Numbered from the stretch's first letter, positions 2,125 to 13,031 are shown. The stretch: DNA of 13,031 bases from a virus (IMGVR_UViG_2548876858_000019); one strand, 5' to 3'. The notes: generated by a model not told the origin, from the sequence alone. Numbers and translations: made by a program.

Positions 2125-2200
2125 TGTATCGAATTTGACACAATACCCGCCCGCAGTAATCAGACCGTCAAGCAAATATCGTTGTACTGTTCACGACACA
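2125..2200 (+). promoter_or_regulatory. two TGT-N12-ACA dyads (Ogr/Delta-box-like) upstream of the portal gene
   Basis: TTGTATCGAATTTGACACAA (2124-2143) and TTGTACTGTTCACGACACAC (2182-2201); each has exact TGT-N12-ACA spacing and shares 14-15 of 20 positions with the dyad upstream of the sid-like gene. Confidence 0.4.
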
Positions 2201-2236
2201 CCTGATCACTCAAGAATTGTTCACAGCGAGAAAAAT

Positions 2237-3262
2237 ATGGATAACCCGGACAAAACTCCCGTACCTGAGGTCACTGTAGCAACAGAACCGCAGCCCTCTG
2301 CAGAATGCTTCACCTTTGGCGATCCCATTCCGGTACTGGACCGGCGCGAGCTGCTTGATTATGTGGAGTGCGTACAGATTGATCGCTGGTATGAACCGCC
2401 GGTCAGTTTTGCCGGGCTGGCACGTACCTACCGCGCTGCCGTGCATCACAGTTCACCAATTGCTGTTAAGCGTGACATTCTCAGCAGCACCTTCATCCCA
2501 CACCGCTTGCTCAGCCAGCAGTCTTTCGCCCGTTTCGTTCAGGATTATCTGGTGTTTGGTAATGCTTATCTGGAAAAGCGCACCAACTGGCTGGGTGATG
2601 TCCTCTCACTGGAGCCAGCGCTGGCAAAGTATACCCGGCGCGGCGTTGACCTAGAATCCTACTGGTTTGTGAACTACGGCCTGACGATGCAGCCTTATGA
2701 GTTCACCAGAGGCAACATTTTTCATCTGATGGAGCCGGATATTAACCAAGAGATTTACGGGCTGCCCGGTTATCTCTCCGCCATTCCGTCAACCCTGCTC
2801 AACGAGTCCGCAACGCTGTTCCGTCGGAAATATTACATCAACGGCAGCCATGTAGGCTTCATCATGTACATGACCGACGCTGCGCAGAATCAGGAGGATG
2901 TGAACAACATCCGCAAGGCAATGAAAAGTGCCAAAGGACCGGGCAATTTTCGCAATCTCTTTATGTACTCACCCAATGGCAAAAAAGATGGCATCCAGAT
3001 CATCCCCCTATCCGAAGTTGCGGCGAAAGATGAGTTTCTGAACATCAAGAACGTGAGCCGTGATGACATGATGGCAGCGCACCGTGTGCCACCGCAGATG
3101 ATGGGAATCATGCCGAGTAACGTTGGGGGGTTTGGAGATGTAGAAAAAGCCAGCCGTGTTTTTGTTCGCAACGAACTGATGCCGCTACAGAAGCGACTGC
3201 AGGAACTGAACGACTGGTGTGGCGAGAAAATAATTAGTTTTGAACCTTATACACTTGAGTAA
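2237..3262 (+). CDS. phage portal protein, P2 Q / PBSX-type
   Basis: 341 aa from ATG 2237 (track ORF starts at TTG 2135; trimmed); portal-like clip motif RDDMMAAHRVPPQMMGI; length close to P2 Q as I recall it; ends at TAA 3260-3262 before a terminator. Confidence 0.7.
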   Translation: MDNPDKTPVPEVTVATEPQPSAECFTFGDPIPVLDRRELLDYVECVQIDRWYEPPVSFAGLARTYRAAVHHSSPIAVKRDILSSTFIPHRLLSQQSFARFVQDYLVFGNAYLEKRTNWLGDVLSLEPALAKYTRRGVDLESYWFVNYGLTMQPYEFTRGNIFHLMEPDINQEIYGLPGYLSAIPSTLLNESATLFRRKYYINGSHVGFIMYMTDAAQNQEDVNNIRKAMKSAKGPGNFRNLFMYSPNGKKDGIQIIPLSEVAAKDEFLNIKNVSRDDMMAAHRVPPQMMGIMPSNVGGFGDVEKASRVFVRNELMPLQKRLQELNDWCGEKIISFEPYTLE

Positions 3263-3291: not shown

Positions 3292-4257
3292 TTAATCGGG
3301 AAGGTTACGTAAATCGATATATGAGAAAAATGCGGCACCTTTCTCAGTTAACTCGTATCGAAGATATCGATTTTCCATTATTGGCGTTGTTTTGAGTAGG
3401 CCATGGACCATCATTAACGTGCAAACATTTCTAACCAAAAAACCAGCTAAGTCAGTCGAATTTGATCTTAACCCAGAAAGAATAGTTCCTCTATACAGCA
3501 AAATGAGTCGCATTGCTGTTGTTTTAACTGGCTCTGGAGTTTCGGATAATTTTGTCGGGATCGTTAACTGTGTATTTTCAAATAGCTTATATATTTTACT
3601 GAACTCTTCCTCAGATGGTTTTTTTACTATAGCTTTACTTTCAGGAGAACGTGCAGCTCTGAGAAGTTCAACCTCAGATTTTAAAGCTTCATTTTCCTTC
3701 GTTAGTTTAGATATTTGTTCTATTAACACACTTGACTCTGATATTTCCTTTCCAGAAACCCACCCAAGGAGATTTCTCTCGACACCAATTTGAGGAAGTG
3801 TCTTATAAATTGATATTTGTATATCTTTAATATCCCGAAAAAATTCCACCGGATACCCCTTGACCTTTTGTTTGAAAGCTTCATATTTTGTCGGGTTATC
3901 TAATTCAAGAACTTCCTTACCAACTGTTTTAACTTTTTCATCTAGATATTCGTCATCAATGACTATCGAAAATAGAGGTTTGTTTGTACTTAAAGCATAA
4001 TCATATTCGAGCTCTGTATAGCAATAATCACTGCCGGGAGCAATCGTTCCATAACGCCCTCCCAGAATAAGGATGTAGATATCTGACTCATCTATCCAGC
4101 GCTTAATAATTTCTAACTGGCTTCTGTCTCCAGGCTTAAATAGCTCCATTCCCGCAGGTATATGCCCGGCAGTTAATATGGCACTTACCGCAGCTTGCCT
4201 TTCTTCAATGAGGTCTGTAAAAGTTGATGAAATGAAAACTTGAAATTTCCTATTCAT
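3292..4257 (-). CDS. DUF4062-like domain protein with coiled-coil and C-terminal domain of unknown function (candidate defence cargo)
   Basis: 321 aa from ATG 4255-4257; N-terminus MNRKFQVFISSTFTDLIEERQAAV...ILILGGRYGTIAPGSDYCYTELEYDYA fits the FISSTF/ER/GGRYG/TExEY signature I associate with DUF4062; central coiled-coil (ISKLTKENEALKSEVELLRAA); visibly AT-rich; terminators on both sides. Confidence 0.8.
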   Translation of the reverse strand: MNRKFQVFISSTFTDLIEERQAAVSAILTAGHIPAGMELFKPGDRSQLEIIKRWIDESDIYILILGGRYGTIAPGSDYCYTELEYDYALSTNKPLFSIVIDDEYLDEKVKTVGKEVLELDNPTKYEAFKQKVKGYPVEFFRDIKDIQISIYKTLPQIGVERNLLGWVSGKEISESSVLIEQISKLTKENEALKSEVELLRAARSPESKAIVKKPSEEEFSKIYKLFENTQLTIPTKLSETPEPVKTTAMRLILLYRGTILSGLRSNSTDLAGFLVRNVCTLMMVHGLLKTTPIMENRYLRYELTEKGAAFFSYIDLRNLPD

Positions 4258-4518
4258 TTTTTATCCATATAGAGTTATTGTCATCTAACATACCTACAAA
4301 ATGCTATAGGTAAATTTAAGTTGGTATTATTAGTCTTTTACTAGTATCTAATGCTGAAAAAGTTGATGAAAGAAAGACATTAGACGCAGATACCAACATC
4401 AGAGCATAATCATATGATATAGGTTAAAGCGTGTTCAAGACCGATTAACGTAAGTTCCCTAGATCTCCCCTCAGCGCGAGCAGCCCCGCCCGCCTGCCCG
4501 CTTCGCTTAACAGAATGG

Positions 4519-4632
4519 TTTTCATGCACCCCGTAAATCGCCTCAGGAGCCGCCACACAAGGGCTTTCACGTCAAAAATGATGCATGAGACTCATGCGTT
4601 TTCATGCGCCATAGACATGCACTCATGCGCTC
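4519..4632. repeat. cluster of CATGC-containing direct repeats (TTTTCATGC x2, ACTCATGCG x2, six CATGC cores)
   Basis: Seen at 4519-4527, 4599-4607 (TTTTCATGC) and 4589-4597, 4621-4629 (ACTCATGCG), plus further CATGC at 4583 and 4616; intergenic between Delta terminator and Y promoter region. Confidence 0.35.
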
Positions 4633-4656
4633 TCAGGCCAGCCAGGAAAAAGGCGT

Positions 4657-4703: not shown

Positions 4704-4976
4704 TCAGACAGGGATTTGCTGGCGGCTTGATAACTTTGATGCAGAGCCATAGCGATTGAGCGTTTGCTGTTGTTTTTCCGGCATTTGTGCTTTGTCTGAT
4801 TCCTGTTCATTGCGCCGGGGCTTCATAATTATCTTATCCACACTTTCCAGAGCGGTAAATGTGCAGGAACATTCAAGATTCTGGCACTGATACCATGAGC
4901 GTTTAACCGACGGTGCTTCATAGGCGGTGGTTCTGGCGTGTGCAACGGTGCCGCATTCAGGACATTTCAGCGCCAT
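4704..4976 (-). CDS. Ogr/Delta-family zinc-finger late-gene transcription activator
   Basis: 90 aa, MALKCPECGTVAHARTTAY...YQCQNLECSCTF: C-x2-C...C-x4-C motif and overall pattern of P2 Ogr / P4 Delta; ATG overlaps the TGA of the upstream sid-like gene (ATGA). Confidence 0.85.
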   Translation of the reverse strand: MALKCPECGTVAHARTTAYEAPSVKRSWYQCQNLECSCTFTALESVDKIIMKPRRNEQESDKAQMPEKQQQTLNRYGSASKLSSRQQIPV

Positions 4977-5737
4977 CAGATACCCTCCATATCACGGTTA
5001 CGTTTCTGCAGCTCTTCACGTTCCTGACGGATCTTCATTTTGTGAAGGGCCGCCGGTGACGGGATTTTGCTTAAATCGACACGAGCCGCATAATCCGGCG
5101 CAACGCCCGCCAGTTTAAACACAGGGTCCAGTTCCGGCATCGCAGTGTTAGCAAGAGCCGGTTTGGTGATATGTTTGTGAATAAAGTCTTTCAGCAGTGT
5201 GTCCGGGTCATTAACTGAATTCACCACCCCCACAACGGCACTGGCTTCCCGCCCCATTGTGGTTTTGAGCAGGCTCAGTGTCTGGATTAACGCCTTACCA
5301 TGCGCCTGCATGAAGTCTTCCCAGATTTGCTTTGCGCGAATTTCCACAAGGGTGTTATGTGCGCTGATATACTGCCCGGCTAATTTCCCGGCTTCCTGCG
5401 GTAATAAGGCATTTTCGCTTTCCTGAGCTGCCAGCAGTTCATCAAAATCCTCAAGCGTTTCTCGTCCCAGCGCAATTTCCGTGCGCAGTTTTTTCATTTC
5501 CTTTGAGACTACGCCCTGACTTTCACGAAACAGCGTGCGCCACTCCTCATTCAGCGCGTTCGTCGTGGCTTCCATTTCAGCCCGGCGCTGGCGGATTGTC
5601 GCAATATTATCCGCTGCCGCTTTCTGCCGACGACGTGCTTCAAGCCATGCGCTTCTGGCTGTATTCAGGGTTTCCATTGCCTGCTGCGTTACAGCCGGAA
5701 AAGTGGAAAGGTTGTTATTCTCTGCGGTGTTGTTCAT
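4976..5737 (-). CDS. Sid/Psu-family protein (P4 capsid size determination-like; Psu-like not excluded)
   Basis: 253 aa, coiled-coil rich; segment AGQYISAHNTLVEIRAKQIWEDFMQAHGKALIQTL matches the Psu/Sid family pattern as I recall it; sits directly upstream of and coupled to delta as sid does in P4; AGGAGA Shine-Dalgarno before ATG 5735-5737. Confidence 0.65.
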   Translation of the reverse strand: MNNTAENNNLSTFPAVTQQAMETLNTARSAWLEARRRQKAAADNIATIRQRRAEMEATTNALNEEWRTLFRESQGVVSKEMKKLRTEIALGRETLEDFDELLAAQESENALLPQEAGKLAGQYISAHNTLVEIRAKQIWEDFMQAHGKALIQTLSLLKTTMGREASAVVGVVNSVNDPDTLLKDFIHKHITKPALANTAMPELDPVFKLAGVAPDYAARVDLSKIPSPAALHKMKIRQEREELQKRNRDMEGI

Positions 5738-5771
5738 GACTTCTCCTGCCGGGTTGGTTCGTTACGTCAAT

Positions 5772-5827
5772 TGTGTCGTGACTGACACAAGCGCACTATC
5801 GGCGCTCAGTGTGTGGTGGCTGGCACA
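5772..5827 (-). promoter_or_regulatory. Psid-like late promoter with two Delta-box dyads
   Basis: TGT-N12-ACA at 5772-5789 (within TTGTGTCGTGACTGACACAA) and at 5810-5827; centres 38 bp apart and about 43 and 81 bp upstream of the sid-like ATG, consistent with activator sites near -18 and -55. Confidence 0.55.
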
Positions 5828-5914
5828 ACGGGCGTTTGCGGTTATTCAGACGCGGCCATGACAGCCAGCCAGATAAAAATGCCTCTGTTTCAGCCTGCTT
5901 TATGTCCCGGATGC

Positions 5915-6110
5915 GGTGAAACAGGTGGAACAGGTGTTACAGCATTGTTTTGTAAAACATTTATATGCACATCACAGGTGAAACATCGCAGGTAACAAGG
6001 TGGAACAGCGGATCGGCTGGCGTTCCACCTGTTCCACCTCACTATTTCAGAAGGTGAAACAGGTTTAGCCCTTGTAAAATACGGGTGTTCCACCTGTTTC
6101 ACCTGTTACC
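5915..6110. repeat. iteron array, candidate replication origin / crr-like site
   Basis: At least nine copies of the 9-mer GGTG(A/G)AACA or its complement TGTT(C/T)CACC: plus orientation at 5915, 5924, 5977, 5999, 6053; minus orientation at 6021/6030, 6086, 6095, with tandem pairs; AT-rich stretch 5941-5970 in the middle; 28 bp downstream of the primase stop. Confidence 0.7.
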
Positions 6111-6137
6111 CTTAATAAATAAGACTCACGCAAAGCC

Positions 6138-8810
6138 TTAACCCGGCACCTCGCTGTTGAAGACATAGAGTCTGCGGGGATTCATCTCTGGCGGGCGAAT
6201 GGTTGTCTGCAGCTTGCCATCGGTGGAGGGCAGCAGGTATCCACGATCCGCGCACAGACGCGCCACCTTGCGCGGGTCAAATCCCCGGCAGATTTCTTTC
6301 CAGCCGGACGGCATGACGTAGAACGTGGTGACGGCCTCCGTGCCCTGCGCGGTACTGCCTTTCTCCACCCTGCGCCAGCCCACCATATTGCCGGGGCGGT
6401 TACGCTCGTCGTGCCAGTCAGCAAAGCGGCTGTACTGATTCGCGGTAAAGAAGCTGCGTACCTGCTCCAGTGCGGCAATATCTTCCTGATTGGCGGTGTG
6501 CCCGCGATCTTTCAGCCATGCGTTCAGGCAGACGCGGGTTGCCCGCAGCGCTTCACCCTCAGGCCAGCCGGTAATACCCAGCCGGGTTGCCAGCTCGCCC
6601 GCCATCGCCACCAGTGCAAAGCGGTTCACAGCCCGGCCTACCTGATTACCCGCATCTTTCGGGGTCAGGGCGGCTGTATATTCCTTCATCAGTGACTTTG
6701 CCTGTGCCGTCAGCCCGTTAAGGTCAGCGGTCAGGGCTTTCAGCCACTCCCTGAACGGCGAACCGTAGTAGCTGGACGTGGCCCACTCCAGATGTTCCGC
6801 CAGAGCCTTGCCGCTGTCGAAGCCGTGCAGCTCCTCAAATACGCCAAATTTCCCGGAATCGCTGGGGATCTGGATCATCCTGACTTCCATCCCGGCAAAG
6901 GTACGCTCACCGGCTTTTGCCGCATGTTCGGTCAGTGACAGCTCGCCGGTTGAAAAGAACAGCAGCCGCCACTGCTTACGGGTGCGCAGCTCACCGTCCG
7001 TACCGGCACGGCCCTTGCCCTGACCGTTTGCCAGCATGTAGGCGATATTACCCGCCTCGCGTCCGTCCACCTCCCGGATCTCATCGAGCATCATGGCGGC
7101 ATCGTTGCGGCGGCTGGCGCATCCCTCCAGCGCGTTGCCGGTTGCCCGCCACGTCTGCCAGTAATCAGGCCCGCCACAAACGGAGGTTGCCGCTTTCATG
7201 GTGGTGGTCTTACCGTCAGTCGATTCCCCCTTGAGGTGGTAGCCGCCGCCGTCCATCCCAACCAGCCGTAACAGGGGTGCAGCAAAGGCCAGACTGACGG
7301 CAAACGCCACGCGGGAGTTACCGGTGCAGTAACGGGAAACGTGCTCCCGCCATTCCTCCGTTGTACCTGACACACGGAAATCGCGCCCCTGCACGGAAGT
7401 GGTCTGGAGAATGACACCCTCTGCACCTTCACCGCTGACCTCATCCTGCAGGACGTAAACCTGACCATGCCAGCCAGTGCGGCTGACGCAGGTCACGCGG
7501 CGTTCCGGTTTACACAGCGAGATATATTCCATCAGGCGGGCGCGGGCCTCACCGGTGGTGCTGATATAGGACAGCCCGTTAACCAGCAGTACCCGGCGTA
7601 GTTCCTCACCGCTACCACTGAGCATTTCCATCGGCATCGCCCAGCGGCGGCGCTCTCCCCATGTATCTTCCCACTCCAGCAGTCGCCCGAAATTACCGCC
7701 ATCAGCATCGCAGGTGATTGCCGTCACGCGCAACGGGTTGCATATTTTGACGTTCTGGATCTCCGTCTCACCGTTGCGCTGTACCTGTTTTTCATACCAG
7801 AGATATTCCTGGGTAAGACGGAACCCGTGCGGCAACTGCGTGCGGCCTTCTCCGCACAGTACAAGACCGTTACGAAAGGCTTCACGGGCACGTGTAATAC
7901 CGTGCTCACGGTGGAAGTCATTCCAGTCAGCTTTAATTTCTCCCGGTGGCAGCGTCACCCAGCCACCGACTGATTTTGCCGCCCGTTCAGCAAAGGATCT
8001 GCCGGGATTCTCGCCCCCGTCCTGAAAATCGTTATCACCGGCGATGATAATTTTTACCTCAGGCCAGCGTGCCCGCAGCGCCTGTGCGACGTTGGGCAGG
8101 TTGCCCGCCGATATGGCCGCCACTACGCATCCGGCGGTGAGCTGGCTTACCGTCAGCGCCGTGGCGTAACCTTCGGTAATCACCACCTGTACCGGCGGTT
8201 CAGACGGTAACGGGCTGAGCGCCACAAACGCGCCTTTCATCGTGCTGCCGGGCAGTATGCTTTTTTCACCCGTCGGGGCGATAAGCTGTGCACCGGTCAC
8301 GGCTCCGGCGTTCGTCGTGAGCGGTAACAGCAGGGAACCGGCAGGGAAATCCTTACCACTGATATGCTGCACGCTCCCGGTCAGGGAGGCCGGGTATCCG
8401 GCGAACCCTTTTCCGGTCAGATAGGGGCTTTCTCCCGTGTGACTCTCTTTCATCAGGGCCGCCACGGTAAGGCTCATATCGCGTTTAGGGGCTTTTTGCC
8501 TGGCGGGCTTAACGGGCAGTTCCTGCACATCCGGCACATTAAGCACCTGCGCCACCTCCTGCGCTGCCTTTCTGATGCCGTAACCGGTTATGAGCTTAAC
8601 CAGATCCAGACCATCACCATTGCCGCACTGGCTGCAAATCCACGTCCCGCGCCCGTCGAGGTCATCGAGGCGGAAGCGATCCTTGCCCCCACATTTCGGG
8701 CAGGGACCGTGCCTGCCGTTTTCAGGTACATCAATACGCAGCATCTGCAGAATGACGGGCCATTTTCCCCGCGCTGCGGCTGAAATCTGCGTAACCGTCT
8801 GTGTTGTCAT
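6138..8810 (-). CDS. P4 alpha-type primase-helicase (zinc finger + Toprim + P-loop NTPase)
   Basis: 890 aa; N-terminal HGPCPKCGG...CSQCGNGDG zinc finger; Toprim-like ITEGYATALTV and IIAGDNDFQDGG; Walker A GESTDGKTT; GGGGGA Shine-Dalgarno; ATG overlaps the TGA of the upstream ORF. Confidence 0.85.
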   Translation of the reverse strand: MTTQTVTQISAAARGKWPVILQMLRIDVPENGRHGPCPKCGGKDRFRLDDLDGRGTWICSQCGNGDGLDLVKLITGYGIRKAAQEVAQVLNVPDVQELPVKPARQKAPKRDMSLTVAALMKESHTGESPYLTGKGFAGYPASLTGSVQHISGKDFPAGSLLLPLTTNAGAVTGAQLIAPTGEKSILPGSTMKGAFVALSPLPSEPPVQVVITEGYATALTVSQLTAGCVVAAISAGNLPNVAQALRARWPEVKIIIAGDNDFQDGGENPGRSFAERAAKSVGGWVTLPPGEIKADWNDFHREHGITRAREAFRNGLVLCGEGRTQLPHGFRLTQEYLWYEKQVQRNGETEIQNVKICNPLRVTAITCDADGGNFGRLLEWEDTWGERRRWAMPMEMLSGSGEELRRVLLVNGLSYISTTGEARARLMEYISLCKPERRVTCVSRTGWHGQVYVLQDEVSGEGAEGVILQTTSVQGRDFRVSGTTEEWREHVSRYCTGNSRVAFAVSLAFAAPLLRLVGMDGGGYHLKGESTDGKTTTMKAATSVCGGPDYWQTWRATGNALEGCASRRNDAAMMLDEIREVDGREAGNIAYMLANGQGKGRAGTDGELRTRKQWRLLFFSTGELSLTEHAAKAGERTFAGMEVRMIQIPSDSGKFGVFEELHGFDSGKALAEHLEWATSSYYGSPFREWLKALTADLNGLTAQAKSLMKEYTAALTPKDAGNQVGRAVNRFALVAMAGELATRLGITGWPEGEALRATRVCLNAWLKDRGHTANQEDIAALEQVRSFFTANQYSRFADWHDERNRPGNMVGWRRVEKGSTAQGTEAVTTFYVMPSGWKEICRGFDPRKVARLCADRGYLLPSTDGKLQTTIRPPEMNPRRLYVFNSEVPG

Positions 8811-9190
8811 ATTTCCCCCTGATACAGCGATACACCCGAGCTGCAGAAGTCATCAAATGCCGCCGGAAGTGTGCGGTACAGCTCCGCCATCACTTCACAG
8901 CCGCGCACAGTCAGTACCGGTGGCGCGGTCAGCAATGATGGCTCCAGCATGTCAGTCAGCAGCGCCAGTGCAGCCGCTGCTCCCTGTGCTTCGCCATATT
9001 CGTTAATCAGTGCGCACTCGATATGCAGGGCAATGGCCATTTCAATACGTTCAACCGTCAGGCTGTGCGGACCATAGTGATCGCAGCCGGTTTCGGTCAG
9101 CGCTTTCTGGCGCCAGGCCGATGCAATAGCCCGCCGGTAAAGCGCAGTGGTCATTTCTGCCGGAAAAATAGAAACCTGCGGCTGGTTCAT
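8807..9190 (-). CDS. hypothetical protein (replication-module small ORF)
   Basis: 127 aa; strong AAGGAGG Shine-Dalgarno 7 nt before ATG; ATGA overlaps at both ends with neighbouring ORFs; no recognisable motif. Confidence 0.5.
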   Translation of the reverse strand: MNQPQVSIFPAEMTTALYRRAIASAWRQKALTETGCDHYGPHSLTVERIEMAIALHIECALINEYGEAQGAAAALALLTDMLEPSLLTAPPVLTVRGCEVMAELYRTLPAAFDDFCSSGVSLYQGEI

Positions 9191-9471: not shown

Positions 9472-9502
9472 CGTGGATTACTCCGTTTTCAGCGGTGTTT
9501 TG

Positions 9503-9862
9503 TCAGAGAAACTTTGAATAGTGACTGTCGTCAGGTTCAGCAGAACGCCGTATGCTGCGCTCCCGCCAGCGGGTAAATACCACCGACGGATGCAGCGTCA
9601 GCGAGCCAGAGCCGCTACCCCCCGCGGGAGCTAGCGAAGGTTTAAAGAGCGGGGCATTAAACAGGCGCGTATACCGCTGCTCAAACCATGCCAGAGGGCA
9701 GGAAGAAAGCTTATTGTCGCTGTCATGACGAATCAGCACTTCACAGCTGAATTCAGGGTTAACCAGCGCCACGGAGGGCGAGGCTTCAGTTAATCTGATA
9801 ATCGTGACAGTCCAGCCACGCTCATGCTGCCAGCGTTCGCCGGGTTGCGGATAATTACGCAT
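9503..9862 (-). CDS. hypothetical protein
   Basis: Track ORF starts at TTG 9892; first ATG at 9860-9862 is preceded by GGAGGTG and overlaps the stop of the upstream small ORF (ATGCGTAA); C-terminal half is low complexity (AGGSGSGS). Confidence 0.4.
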   Translation of the reverse strand: MRNYPQPGERWQHERGWTVTIIRLTEASPSVALVNPEFSCEVLIRHDSDNKLSSCPLAWFEQRYTRLFNAPLFKPSLAPAGGSGSGSLTLHPSVVFTRWRERSIRRSAEPDDSHYSKFL

Positions 9863-10031
9863 GTTCACCTCCACAGGGAATGCGACCGGCAAAGCTCAGC
9901 ACATAGTCCGGGGCAAGTCTGCGCCGCGCTGAGCGCTCGTTATCTGCGGTGATCCTTAACATCACAGGACGGGCATTGCGTTGACTGCGGTTGATCGCCG
10001 CAAATAACCAGGTACACTTCTGTTTAGCCAT
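9855..10031 (-). CDS. hypothetical small basic protein (first gene of the leftward operon)
   Basis: Track ORF starts at GTG 10085; ATG 10029-10031 preceded by GAGGT gives 58 aa MAKQKCTWLFAAINRSQRNARPVMLRITADNERSARRRLAPDYV...; coupled to the next ORF. Confidence 0.35.
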   Translation of the reverse strand: MAKQKCTWLFAAINRSQRNARPVMLRITADNERSARRRLAPDYVLSFAGRIPCGGEHA

Positions 10032-10113
10032 TTTCGTTACCTCATCTAACGCTTTGGTCAGACGCCTCGGCAGTGCCGCAAACACTCCGGGGCGTTGCTA
10101 TTTTGATTCCTTG

Positions 10114-10169
10114 TGTGTAATGTGTCATTACACATAAGCACATTACAATAGGTGTAATTGACGTGTCAA
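10114..10169. promoter_or_regulatory. operator-like palindromes in a divergent promoter region
   Basis: Perfect inverted repeat TGTGTAATG-tgt-CATTACACA (10114-10134) and palindrome TTGACGTGTCAA (10158-10169) overlapping the GTG start of the ribbon-helix-helix gene; lies between the leftward small-ORF/primase operon and the rightward RHH gene. Confidence 0.45.
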
Positions 10170-10342
10170 CACACAAGAACGAAAGACGTGGTAATCCACC
10201 ATTCCAGTTCAGACTTGACCCTGAATTGCGTGAGTTAATGGAAGAAGCACAGCAGCAGGATGGTGATGAATCACTGGCTGCTTGGATCAAACGCATTATC
10301 CGCAAAGAGCTACAAAGTCGTGGTTCCGAACCAAAGAACTGA
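10163..10342 (+). CDS. putative ribbon-helix-helix (Arc/CopG-like) DNA-binding protein
   Basis: 59-aa frame from GTG 10163 to TGA 10340-10342, absent from the ORF track (below its 60-aa cutoff); VSTHKNERRGNPPFQFRLDPELRELMEEAQQQDGDESLAAWIKRIIRKEL has the basic N-terminus, short beta-strand and two helices typical of RHH regulators; AGGTG upstream; the antisense 121-aa track ORF looks non-coding. Confidence 0.45.
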   Translation: MSTHKNERRGNPPFQFRLDPELRELMEEAQQQDGDESLAAWIKRIIRKELQSRGSEPKN

Positions 10343-10352
10343 TAAATACATG

Positions 10353-10379
10353 GGGAAGATTTTCTTCTTTCCCATTTTT
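10353..10379 (+). terminator. possible terminator after the RHH gene
   Basis: Imperfect hairpin GGGAAGA-tttt-cTTCTTTCCC followed by ATTTTTC. Confidence 0.3.
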
Positions 10380-10393
10380 CTAAGGTCGTCATA

Positions 10394-10603
10394 TTATTTA
10401 TCAGCATCTGAGGATTGAGCTTTTACCCACTGTCTAATTTCTTGTGCATCGTAAACAGTTACCCGTTTTGAAATACGTGTGGATTTTGGAAATTCAGGAT
10501 TGTTTTTTTCCCAGCGCCAGAGAGTAACTGTGCTTACTTGCAAAAAGTCAGCAGTAGCCCGTGGGCGGGCATGCCCGGTGATAGGGTAAGTTTTTAATGT
10601 CAT
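10394..10603 (-). CDS. alpA: AlpA/Vis-family phage transcriptional regulator
   Basis: 69 aa; TADFLQVSTVTLWRWEKNNPEFPKSTRISKRVTVYDAQEIRQWV fits the AlpA-type helix-turn-helix pattern; typical size and position next to a P4-type integrase. Confidence 0.7.
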   Translation of the reverse strand: MTLKTYPITGHARPRATADFLQVSTVTLWRWEKNNPEFPKSTRISKRVTVYDAQEIRQWVKAQSSDADK

Positions 10604-11759: not shown

Positions 11760-13031
11760 TCAAACAACGCGTAGTTTTTTCATTTTATAGGGGGCAATAT
11801 ATCTATCAGTGTTAGCTTCAATATAATTAGACCACCATTGCATCATCCGACGACGTTCATGCATATGCTGAGCTAAGTGTACATAAGCGGCTCGCACTTC
11901 ATTTCGTTCTTGATGGCTCATTTGCCGTTCTACTGCATCCCTCGACCATAAGCCTGATTCTGTCAGGGCTGAGCACGCCATTGCCCTAAATCCATGAAGG
12001 CAAATGTCCACCTGCGTGTCGTACCCCATAATTCTTAATGACTTATTAACTGTGTTCTCACTCATTGGTTTGTAAGGGTTACTATCTCCGGGGAAAATAA
12101 GTTCATACTCACCACTTATTTTTTTAATAGCTTCGAGAACATCAATAGCTTCATTAGATAATGGAACATAATGAATACTGCCCATTTTTGCCCCACGCTC
12201 TGAATATTTTACCCCATCAATTCTTTTTCTTTGAGCAGGAATAGTCCACATTGCATTTTCAAAATTAATTTCCTCCCATCTTGCGTGTCTCAGTTCACTG
12301 GAGCGAACAAAAGTATGAAGAGAAAATAATACTGCCAGCTTAGTTAACGGCCTCCCTGTATAGCTATCAATTTTTGATATTAATTCGGGTAATCGTTCTA
12401 ACGGAAGTGCAGGGCGATGCTTTATTTTGGGGCTGGAAATTGCTCCTCTTAGATCATGGGTAGGATTGTATTCAACAATTCCACGCTGAATAGCGTACCG
12501 GAAAACGCTTGCAAGAGTAGTTTTCACTCTTCCTGTTGTTGCTCCAATTCCCTGATCACTCATCCTCACCAATAATGGCAACAGGTCACTTGTTTTTAAT
12601 GAGTCGATGGGTTTATTTCCGATATATGGGAAAATATGATTTTCCATTTCTCTTAAAATTTTAGTGCGGGTAATCTCTTTCCATGAGGGATGGCCTATAG
12701 AGCCTTTATGCCACTCTAAAGCGATTGTCTGGAATGTAGCAGAGGCGGGTTCTGTTGGCGCTGCTTTTTTAGATACTCTGGGATCAACACCGTCGGCTAA
12801 AAGTTGCCTTGCTTCATCTCTACGCTTACGGGCAAGTGCCAGCGAAACGTCTGGGAAAACGCCCAAAGCCAGCGTAGCTTGTTTGCCGTTAAATCTGTAG
12901 TTCATTCGCCATGCCTTGGTCCCGTTCTTTTTAACTAAAAGATACAGGCTTCCCCCATCCGTCAGTTTGTAGTCTGTTTCTTTGGGTTTAGCGTTTTCAA
13001 CTTTCTTGGGTGATAGCTCATTTAGTGCCAT
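11760..13031 (-). CDS. tyrosine recombinase, P4 / CP4-57 IntA-type integrase
   Basis: 423 aa; N-terminal arm-binding region (YKLTDGGSLYLLVKKNGTKAWRMNYRFNGK); catalytic-region HGFR (HxxR) and tyrosine in RAAYVHL; start codon is the last three bases of the window, facing the presumed tRNA. Confidence 0.9.
   Translation of the reverse strand: MALNELSPKKVENAKPKETDYKLTDGGSLYLLVKKNGTKAWRMNYRFNGKQATLALGVFPDVSLALARKRRDEARQLLADGVDPRVSKKAAPTEPASATFQTIALEWHKGSIGHPSWKEITRTKILREMENHIFPYIGNKPIDSLKTSDLLPLLVRMSDQGIGATTGRVKTTLASVFRYAIQRGIVEYNPTHDLRGAISSPKIKHRPALPLERLPELISKIDSYTGRPLTKLAVLFSLHTFVRSSELRHARWEEINFENAMWTIPAQRKRIDGVKYSERGAKMGSIHYVPLSNEAIDVLEAIKKISGEYELIFPGDSNPYKPMSENTVNKSLRIMGYDTQVDICLHGFRAMACSALTESGLWSRDAVERQMSHQERNEVRAAYVHLAQHMHERRRMMQWWSNYIEANTDRYIAPYKMKKLRVV

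Follow-up and report, generated by a model that had tools for sequence, protein, structure and literature searches.

A probable replication origin immediately downstream of a DUF927 primase-helicase gene in a P4-like satellite of Escherichia coli

The satellite element and its gene content

The DNA analysed here (the window, 13,031 bp) is 100% identical to E. coli chromosomes, for example that of strain EC1515, and the 600 bp around the repeat array described below are present in 335 of 5426 complete E. coli genomes (about 6%). The element is adjoined by csc sucrose genes. Nearly all of its genes lie on the minus strand, in the order int-alpA-...-pri-ori-sid-delta, where ori marks the position of the array. 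The features are as follows, beginning at the integrase:

11760-13031, minus strand: integrase
Between the integrase and the AlpA-like gene, minus strand: 350-aa ORF
10394-10603, minus strand: AlpA-like regulator
Between the AlpA-like and DUF5375 genes, minus strand: small ORFs, including an Icd-like one
8807-9190, minus strand: DUF5375 gene
6138-8810, minus strand: gene for the 890-aa primase-helicase and putative initiator
400 bp between the primase-helicase and Sid/Psu-like genes: intergenic region with the repeat array
5772-5789 and 5810-5827, no strand assigned: two TGT-N12-ACA boxes upstream of the sid/psu-like start codon at 5737, conserved in relatives
4976-5737, minus strand: Sid/Psu-like capsid-size gene (Pfam Psu; RefSeq annotation of an identical record)
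4704-4976, minus strand: Delta/Ogr-like gene (Pfam Ogr_Delta; RefSeq annotation of an identical record)
3292-4257, minus strand: DUF4062 gene, in the slot after delta
2135-3262, plus strand: P2-type portal ORF ("phage portal protein" in an identical RefSeq record)

The element has the gene content of a P4-like satellite and a gene order that resembles that of a PICI. It may have decayed as a prophage and lost the ability to replicate, though the ORF for the 890-aa protein is intact.

The two TGT-N12-ACA dyads at 5772-5827 are 38 bp apart, with the array on one side and the start codon of the sid-like gene on the other. They resemble P4 Psid, where a dyad symmetry of the TGTCAGGGCTGGCACA type is separated from the start codon of sid by a corresponding distance. 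Boxes of this kind we take to be Delta/Ogr activator sites, as in P2 and P4, and by this analogy the pair looks like a P4 Psid-like, Delta/Ogr-activated late promoter, which would be a separate feature outside the origin. A second TGT-N12-ACA pair (2125-2142 and 2183-2200) is located at the start of the P2-type portal ORF. The ORF with these dyads (2125-2200) could be a late-promoter-driven portal gene, or a P2 remnant beside the satellite.

Several other features of the element are noted here. The slot after delta holds DUF4062 in the window and the antiviral reverse transcriptases drt3a/drt3b in E. coli C21 (L083 1-1619), with flanks that are 94.7% identical; it looks like a variable hotspot for defence cargo, in which DUF4062 may be a defence candidate. 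Between delta and this cargo gene, at 4470-4640, there is a GC-rich CCCCGCCCGCC tract together with several copies of TCATGC(A/G)C, which could be a site of packaging or a variant of cos; the 19-nt cohesive end (cos) of P2/P4 has no match within 3 mismatches in the window. A C4/CI-type immunity RNA gave no Rfam match at the gathering threshold in 9500-10400, where an Icd-like ORF is annotated in the identical record, and the element may have no P4-type RNA immunity, or one too divergent to be recognised. In EC1515 (L001 16605-18553), torI and lambdoid early genes (ead/Ea22-like, anti-RecBCD) are found directly past the satellite integrase, so that the satellite abuts another prophage; the two are possibly tandem elements at one attachment site.

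The repeat array downstream of the primase-helicase gene

The word GGTGRAACA occurs exactly eight times in the window, against 0.18 occurrences expected, and every copy falls within 5915-6103 (189 bp). None of 200 dinucleotide-preserving shuffles gives eight copies. Allowing one mismatch adds a ninth copy, GGTGGAACG, on the minus strand at 6021-6029, as well as a flanking GCTGAAACA at 5886-5894. A preliminary description of this DNA had listed at least nine copies of GGTG(A/G)AACA in both orientations at 5915-6110, which is borne out as eight exact copies and one copy with a single mismatch. Sequence reading and alignment add three degenerate copies (GGTGTTACA at 5933-5941, AGGTAACA at 5990-5997 and TGTTACC at 6104-6110), whose register is shared with full copies in relatives. 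The array thus comprises about 12 sites (nine strong and three degenerate), seven on the plus strand and five on the minus strand, arranged as follows:

6086-6110, minus strand: gene-proximal tandem iteron triplet at 9-bp spacing, consisting of the degenerate GGTAACA (6104-6110), GGTGAAACA (6095-6103) and GGTGGAACA (6086-6094); all three sites are in register in relatives
6053-6061, plus strand: single iteron GGTGAAACA, conserved in position; relatives read GGTGGAACA or GGTGTAACA
6021-6038, minus strand: tandem iteron pair, GGTGGAACA (6030-6038) and GGTGGAACG (6021-6029)
5977-6007, plus strand: three iterons, GGTGAAACA (5977-5985), the degenerate AGGTAACA (5990-5997) and GGTGGAACA (5999-6007)
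5942-5976, no strand assigned: AT-rich spacer, a candidate DNA-unwinding element by analogy with SaPI and PICI origins (PMC9371898, PMC6092414)
5915-5941, plus strand: gene-distal tandem iteron triplet, GGTGAAACA, GGTGGAACA and the degenerate GGTGTTACA, inverted relative to the gene-proximal triplet

Read along the minus strand, which is the direction of the gene, the order is three forward sites, one reverse, two forward, three reverse, the AT-rich stretch, and three reverse. The outer groups are tandem triplets at 9-bp spacing that are mutually inverted, with an 18-nt perfect inverted repeat that can be extended to 32 nt at 78% complementarity. Two of the three tandem pairs described previously are found where they were placed (5915-5932 and 6086-6103), while the middle pair lies at 6021-6038, one base away from the 6022-6039 originally given. 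The first site is 27 nt past the stop codon (6138-6140) of the 890-aa ORF, in agreement with the earlier placement of the array directly downstream of the primase gene. The AT-rich stretch occupies approximately 5940-5976 (about 35 bp; 76-80% AT in 25-bp windows at 5940-5974). It was originally described as the centre of the array; the stretch exists, but it is off-centre, with iterons on both sides in a ratio of three sites to nine. A search for exact and one-mismatch copies found no second iteron cluster anywhere in the 13,031-bp window.

Two classes of repeat array can be set aside from the form of the repeats. CRISPR arrays have regular direct repeats of 24-48 bp with unique spacers, whereas the repeat unit here is 9 bp long, occurs in both orientations and has irregular spacings of 9 to 65 bp, which rules out a CRISPR array, as had been concluded before. 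An iteron-plasmid origin of the RepA/pi type, in which the repeats are direct and 17-22 bp long, DnaA boxes are present and the Rep protein (WH1-WH2) has no helicase activity, is likewise ruled out by 9-bp repeats in both orientations and by a putative initiator that carries both helicase and primase. Words resembling the DnaA box are not enriched, the AT-rich stretch holding one-mismatch copies only, and no match to the IHF consensus was found.

The region also folds well as RNA and contains open frames. A minus-strand transcript of 5905-6115 is predicted to fold at -87.3 kcal/mol (z = -7.3 against shuffles), and the longest of the stop-free stretches overlapping the array measures 70 aa. On these grounds the primase mRNA might carry at its 3' end a structured RNA or terminator formed by the inverted repeats, or the region might encode a small protein (70 aa, 5890-6102, minus strand). 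A low folding energy is, however, what inverted copies of one word produce, and a structured RNA would leave unexplained the occurrence of the same 9-mer in tandem direct copies and in different helices, all changing together in relatives. No Rfam match at the gathering threshold and no terminator-like site was found; a tRNA scan, and a scan of 5600-6300 with consensus promoters and terminators, also gave no match. The ORFs have no Pfam match, and the frame is not kept in relatives, the median stop-free stretch being 58 of 80 possible codons (43-58 in close relatives). We therefore regard a structured RNA or small ORF as extremely improbable.

The 890-aa protein and related loci

The 890-aa protein contains a Zn-ribbon (aa 32-68), a Toprim domain (209-304) and a DUF927 helicase domain (330-612; E=2.2e-90 in Pfam), with a Walker A motif GESTDGKT at 528-535. 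DUF927 is followed by a helical bundle and then by a predicted C-terminal winged helix (approximately aa 795-890). When the C-terminal 246 aa were modelled they again gave a helical bundle and a winged helix, for which the best structural matches were SaPIbov1 Rep, the oriT-bound wHTH protein TcpK, and Cch. The DUF927 helicase is itself related to SaPIbov1 Rep and to SCCmec Cch.

BLASTP aligns the protein to P4 alpha with 37% identity over 320 aligned positions (E=9e-48), all of it within aa 1-316. Past its primase domain, P4 alpha consists of D5_N, DUF5906 and Pox_D5 (Pfam), and the C-terminus of the 890-aa protein compared with alpha residues 600-777 gave an hhalign probability of 0.1%. From the presence of DUF927 in place of D5_N/DUF5906/Pox_D5, and from this hhalign result, we conclude that a P4-type primase is here fused to helicase and origin-binding modules of the SaPI Rep/Cch type. 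The two properties that mark an initiator of the SaPI/PICI type, namely a helicase of the self-loading class and a C-terminal winged helix, are thus found in the 890-aa protein by homology and by modelling. The preliminary description had interpreted the array in terms of P4 alpha and its ori and crr sites; the homology to alpha is confined to the N-terminal primase domain and there is only one cluster, and this framing is therefore not supported. What does survive is the description of the array as iteron-like, for which the best explanation is an origin that the adjacent 890-aa primase-helicase recognises.

Seventeen homologues were aligned and the alignment was used to scan genomes, which yielded 78 loci, with protein identities from 100% down to 36%, from Enterobacterales, Burkholderiales and other proteobacterial MAGs. 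For the 74 loci with enough downstream sequence, repeats of 7-mers were counted over the locus of approximately 10 kb. In 62 of the 74, this count peaks in the 300 bp past the stop codon, where it is typically 7-13 against a background mean of 2.3 and maximum of 3-6. The clusters contain 6-13 copies in both orientations, in similar orientation patterns, at approximately +25 to +260. Almost no second cluster was found in these ~10-kb loci. In three loci (L038, L046 and L063) the cluster, with 10-13 copies of GGGAACA or GTGGGAA, is displaced by about 1.15 kb (to about +1150 to +1380), which suggests an insertion between the DUF927 gene and the origin.

The architecture is common to the relatives, and the repeat word varies between loci. 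The words found include GGTGGAACA, GGTGTAACA, GGGGTAACA, yTGGTAACA, GTGGTAACA, TGGATACA, TGTAGTACA, GGGTTAC, GCGGTTAC, GCTGTTAC, TGGGGACA and GCAGGGGCA. We note also that L049, L050 and L053 encode DUF927 proteins of about 700 aa that are without the P4-type Zn-ribbon/Toprim N-terminus, and that L050 carries 12 iterons of the sequence GGTGGAACA, the window's own word, at only 65% protein identity. The sequences of these three loci point to modular exchange of the primase domain.

The array is situated about 90-300 bp upstream of the Psid-like promoter with its two TGT-N12-ACA boxes, and there is no intrinsic terminator between the primase gene and the sid-like gene. Both observations would suit an array of operators for the late sid/delta operon, bound by AlpA or by a Delta/Ogr-type regulator of the satellite or its helper. 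However, the array is found behind the DUF927 gene with or without sid/delta nearby, and similar arrays follow this gene in many loci that are without sid/delta, including all those of Burkholderiales, none of which has a sid/delta homologue nearby. Since it follows the primase-helicase gene regardless, the array is tied to that gene and not to the late promoter. Furthermore, the Delta/Ogr boxes are a separate motif that is differently conserved, and the iteron word appears to covary with winged-helix residues of the adjacent protein, as described below. An operator function is accordingly very unlikely for an array that accompanies the initiator gene whether or not sid/delta is present.

Comparison of the window with a locus from Pantoea (L006), whose protein is 91% identical, separates the sites from the DNA between them. 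The 105 iteron columns are 88% identical, compared to 45% for the 91 spacer columns and 51% for the upstream flank. All 12 sites are in register, and the differences within them are nearly all at position 5. Among five close relatives, position 5 changes between A and G site by site and the other eight positions are fixed. The AT-rich spacer of L006 is also AT-rich, but it cannot be aligned with that of the window. The alignments indicate that it is the sites, and not the DNA between them, that are under selection, a pattern that would be expected for protein-binding sites flanking an unwinding element.

Two pairs of closely related proteins are accompanied by different iteron words. L022 and L025 are 96.4% identical (33 differences), and every iteron changes in register from GGTGTAACA to yTGGTAACA; the differences within the winged helix are at 846, 850, 866 (K to R) and 870. 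The second pair, L024 and L027, has 22 differences (97.6% identity) and iterons that change in register from GGTGTAACA to GGGTAACA, and here the winged-helix differences are at 846, 867 and 883. Both pairs therefore have substitutions at 846, where the predicted recognition helix begins, and in the wing (866/867). The N-terminal 200 aa are also variable in both pairs. On a wider scale, the motif in the wing is distributed as follows:

G-K-x-Q: all loci of GGTG/GGGG type
G-R-x-(Q/V): iteron types TGGTAACA, TGGATACA, TGTAGTACA and GGGTTAC
G-W-A-Q: iteron types GCGGTTAC and GCTGTTAC

The G-K-x-Q rule also holds in L056, L059, L064, L068 and L080 (Burkholderiales/MAG), which were inspected after the pattern had been spotted. 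In sliding windows of 40 aa, comparing protein pairs with the same and with different iterons, there was no segment whose identity tracks iteron type, and no column of the alignment perfectly splits GGTGGAACA loci from GGTGTAACA loci. This failure of the coarser analysis probably arises because position 5 is loosely read: A and G alternate at this position within one element, so that the GGTGGAACA and GGTGTAACA "types" may not be distinct specificities. A signal emerged only from the close pairs, in which the word changes more, and from the wing motif. The signal resides in a few wing and helix residues and in few independent switches, and could thus reflect phylogenetic inertia. The covariation of the iteron word with recognition-helix and wing residues is therefore suggestive and not proof, and gives indirect support to specific binding of the iterons by their own initiator. 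To judge from their sequences, the pairs L022/L025 and L024/L027 appear to be natural switches of specificity, which would be useful for mapping the residues involved in recognition.

Proposed origin function and comparison with known systems

On the sequence evidence above, and by analogy with characterised origins, we consider that the array at 5915-6110 is most probably the single replication origin of a P4-like/PICI-like satellite in the E. coli chromosome, read by the adjacent 890-aa protein. The features of a SaPI/PICI-type origin are present: the array is immediately 3' of the gene, it has short opposed iterons in a number that fits the range of 6-12, and it includes an AT-rich region flanked by iterons.

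The preliminary description had left the choice between origin and crr open. Of these, an origin is very probable and crr is not favoured, there being a single cluster and no separate crr. In P4 the iteron cluster that directly follows alpha serves as crr, ori lying elsewhere, and iteron arrays of plasmids can act in copy control. The array might on this basis be a crr-like auxiliary or copy-control site (a cis enhancer, or a site of handcuffing) that is bound by the same protein, with initiation elsewhere. However, no second iteron cluster is present in the window or in the ~10-kb loci of relatives, which leaves no other candidate for ori, and the array holds its own AT-rich stretch between opposed iterons. 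The homologous SaPI system, moreover, has a single rep-proximal ori (PMC9371898). A crr-like role is thus unlikely, because no other cluster could serve as ori; being the sole cluster in the window, with essentially none besides it in relatives, the array is the only candidate ori.

For the array as origin, we propose the following mechanism. The 890-aa protein would combine initiator, helicase and primase in one chain. Its C-terminal winged helix would recognise the 9-bp iterons (GGTG-R-AACA), reading position 5 loosely, and multiple protomers would assemble on the approximately 12 sites, whose orientations are opposed across the AT-rich DNA at 5942-5976. The DUF927 ATPase, which is of the SaPI Rep/Cch type and MCM-like, would then self-load as ring helicases and melt the AT-rich DNA, and the fused P4-alpha-type Zn-ribbon/Toprim domain would make primers. 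We infer binding, melting, loading and priming from the characterised SaPI Rep-ori, EcCICFT073 pri-ori and P4 alpha-ori systems. That the 12 sites might match two hexamers is speculation.

An iteron origin immediately 3' of a satellite initiator gene is a well known kind of arrangement, and DUF927 "primases" have already been noted in Gram-negative PICIs, with the origin downstream of pri (PMC10111431). Less ordinary are the chimeric initiator, the collapse of ori and crr into one site, the rapid and legible switching of the iteron word, and a likeness between the iteron words of different satellites that is described below. We tentatively suggest, as a broader possibility that falls somewhat short of being probable, that the system is a modular chimera of a P4-alpha primase and a SaPI-Rep-type (DUF927) initiator-helicase, in which one rep-proximal origin replaces P4 ori/crr. 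The word would be set by residues around 846 and by the wing motif G-K/R/W-x-Q (865-868) across a proteobacterial family, and switches at 96-98% identity would create incompatibility groups. If true, this would provide a readable recognition code, and would define incompatibility groups among co-resident satellites.

The analysis locates a probable origin for a satellite family found in many Proteobacteria besides E. coli, in which about 6% of complete genomes carry it. The result also corrects the natural assumption that all P4-like satellites replicate as P4 does, since the half of the protein responsible for helicase and origin-binding functions is of the SaPI Rep/Cch type. The pairs L022/L025 and L024/L027 offer material with which to study iteron reading by a winged helix and to predict which satellites would be incompatible in replication, and 5880-6140 together with the 890-aa gene is an obvious candidate cassette for P4-like delivery particles or for minimal satellite replicons.

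The comparison with P4 shows likeness in gene content: the window shares with it sid/psu-like, delta, DUF5375 and AlpA-like genes and a homologous primase domain. The P4 word GGTGAACA is similar to GGTGRAACA, and P4 also has tandem copies about 9-11 bp apart and an AT-rich stretch between iterons. P4 ori consists of six type I octamers and type II repeats and lies directly upstream of Psid/sid, 4.5 kb from crr, while P4 crr lies directly downstream of alpha and is made up of a 120-bp unit repeated directly, each of the two copies containing five type I octamers. The array in the window is upstream of a Psid-like promoter, as is P4 ori, and downstream of the primase gene, as is P4 crr; it is the gene order, unlike that of P4, that puts one cluster in both positions. 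The window differs from P4 in having one cluster, with neither the 120-bp direct repeats of crr nor type II repeats, and a unidirectional, PICI-like gene order, and its helicase and origin-binding modules are non-homologous (DUF927 and winged helix, compared to D5_N/DUF5906/Pox_D5). A repeat search found no 120-bp direct repeat. Of the components of a P4 ori/crr system, then, the Zn-ribbon/Toprim primase homology is present, and the octamer clusters, the SF3/Pox_D5 alpha and the two-site layout are not.

The comparison of iterons with P4 ori/crr that had been proposed as a check does not support a P4 assignment. The P4 octamer TGTTCACC is not enriched: there are 10 matches in the window at up to 1 mismatch compared to 9.9 expected, and the sole exact copy is at 9862, with none in the array. 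Nor is the 9-mer a P4 octamer with one base changed, as had been thought, since the difference is an inserted base (GGTG-R-AACA compared to GGTG-AACA) and not a substitution. Pairwise alignment with P4 ori-Psid DNA matches the TGT-N12-ACA box only, and a blastn comparison of P4 with the window matches only int and the N-terminus of the primase.

The only experimentally tested Gram-negative satellite origin that we found is that of EcCICFT073, which has a different helicase family. In E. coli PICIs, two sets of iterons flank an AT-rich region just 3' of pri-rep, and a pri-ori segment from EcCICFT073 was shown experimentally to maintain a plasmid (PMC6092414). In its origin sequence an AT-rich stretch is flanked by two iteron sets, with words of 8-9 bp (GGTAGACA/GGTAGATA), and the window shares with it the unidirectional int-alpA-...-primase-ori layout, with the origin directly 3' of the primase gene. 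By contrast, the EcCICFT073 Pri-Rep is composed of D5_N, DUF5906 and Pox_D5, has neither Toprim nor DUF927, and shows no significant similarity to the 890-aa protein, and its morphogenesis genes are lambdoid-type where the window has sid/psu/delta. As Pri-Rep is not a DUF927 protein, EcCICFT073 supports the layout and not the family of the 890-aa protein.

We note in passing that the words of three satellite origins can all be written as GGT-N2-3-ACA: GGTAGACA in EcCICFT073 (L084 6500-6740), GGTGAACA in P4 ori (L002 9310-9413) and GGTGRAACA in the window. They are alike despite the fact that the DNA-binding domain of the window's protein is not detectably homologous to the Pox_D5-type domain of P4 and EcCICFT073.

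SCCmec Cch (PDB 5dgk) resembles the 890-aa protein in having a DUF927/MCM-like helicase core and a C-terminal winged helix. Unlike the 890-aa protein, it has no fused primase and belongs to another kind of mobile element, and in the literature compared, iterons are described for SaPI Reps only.

A close parallel to the array and its protein is the ori/Rep of the Staphylococcus aureus SaPIs (SaPIbov1 Rep/Rep2 type; PDB 8tch), in which ori is also 3' of the initiator-helicase gene and has opposed iterons and an AT-rich stretch. In SaPIs the origin directly follows rep and combines 6-12 iterons, some of them opposed, with an AT-rich region; the C-terminal winged helix of Rep binds iterons without ATP, and the helicases self-load (PMC9371898). 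The iteron words vary by element, each of them matching its own initiator (PMC9371898), as we propose for the relatives of the window. The differences are that the host here is Gram-negative, that the iterons are 9 bp long compared to 5-6 bp in SaPIs, and that the AT-rich stretch is off-centre (three sites to nine), whereas in SaPIs roughly half of the iterons are on each side. The identity between the 890-aa protein and SaPIbov1 Rep is 10-14% in structural alignments. Furthermore, the initiator in the window carries a fused P4-alpha-type Zn-ribbon/Toprim primase, in an element with P4-type sid/psu and delta.
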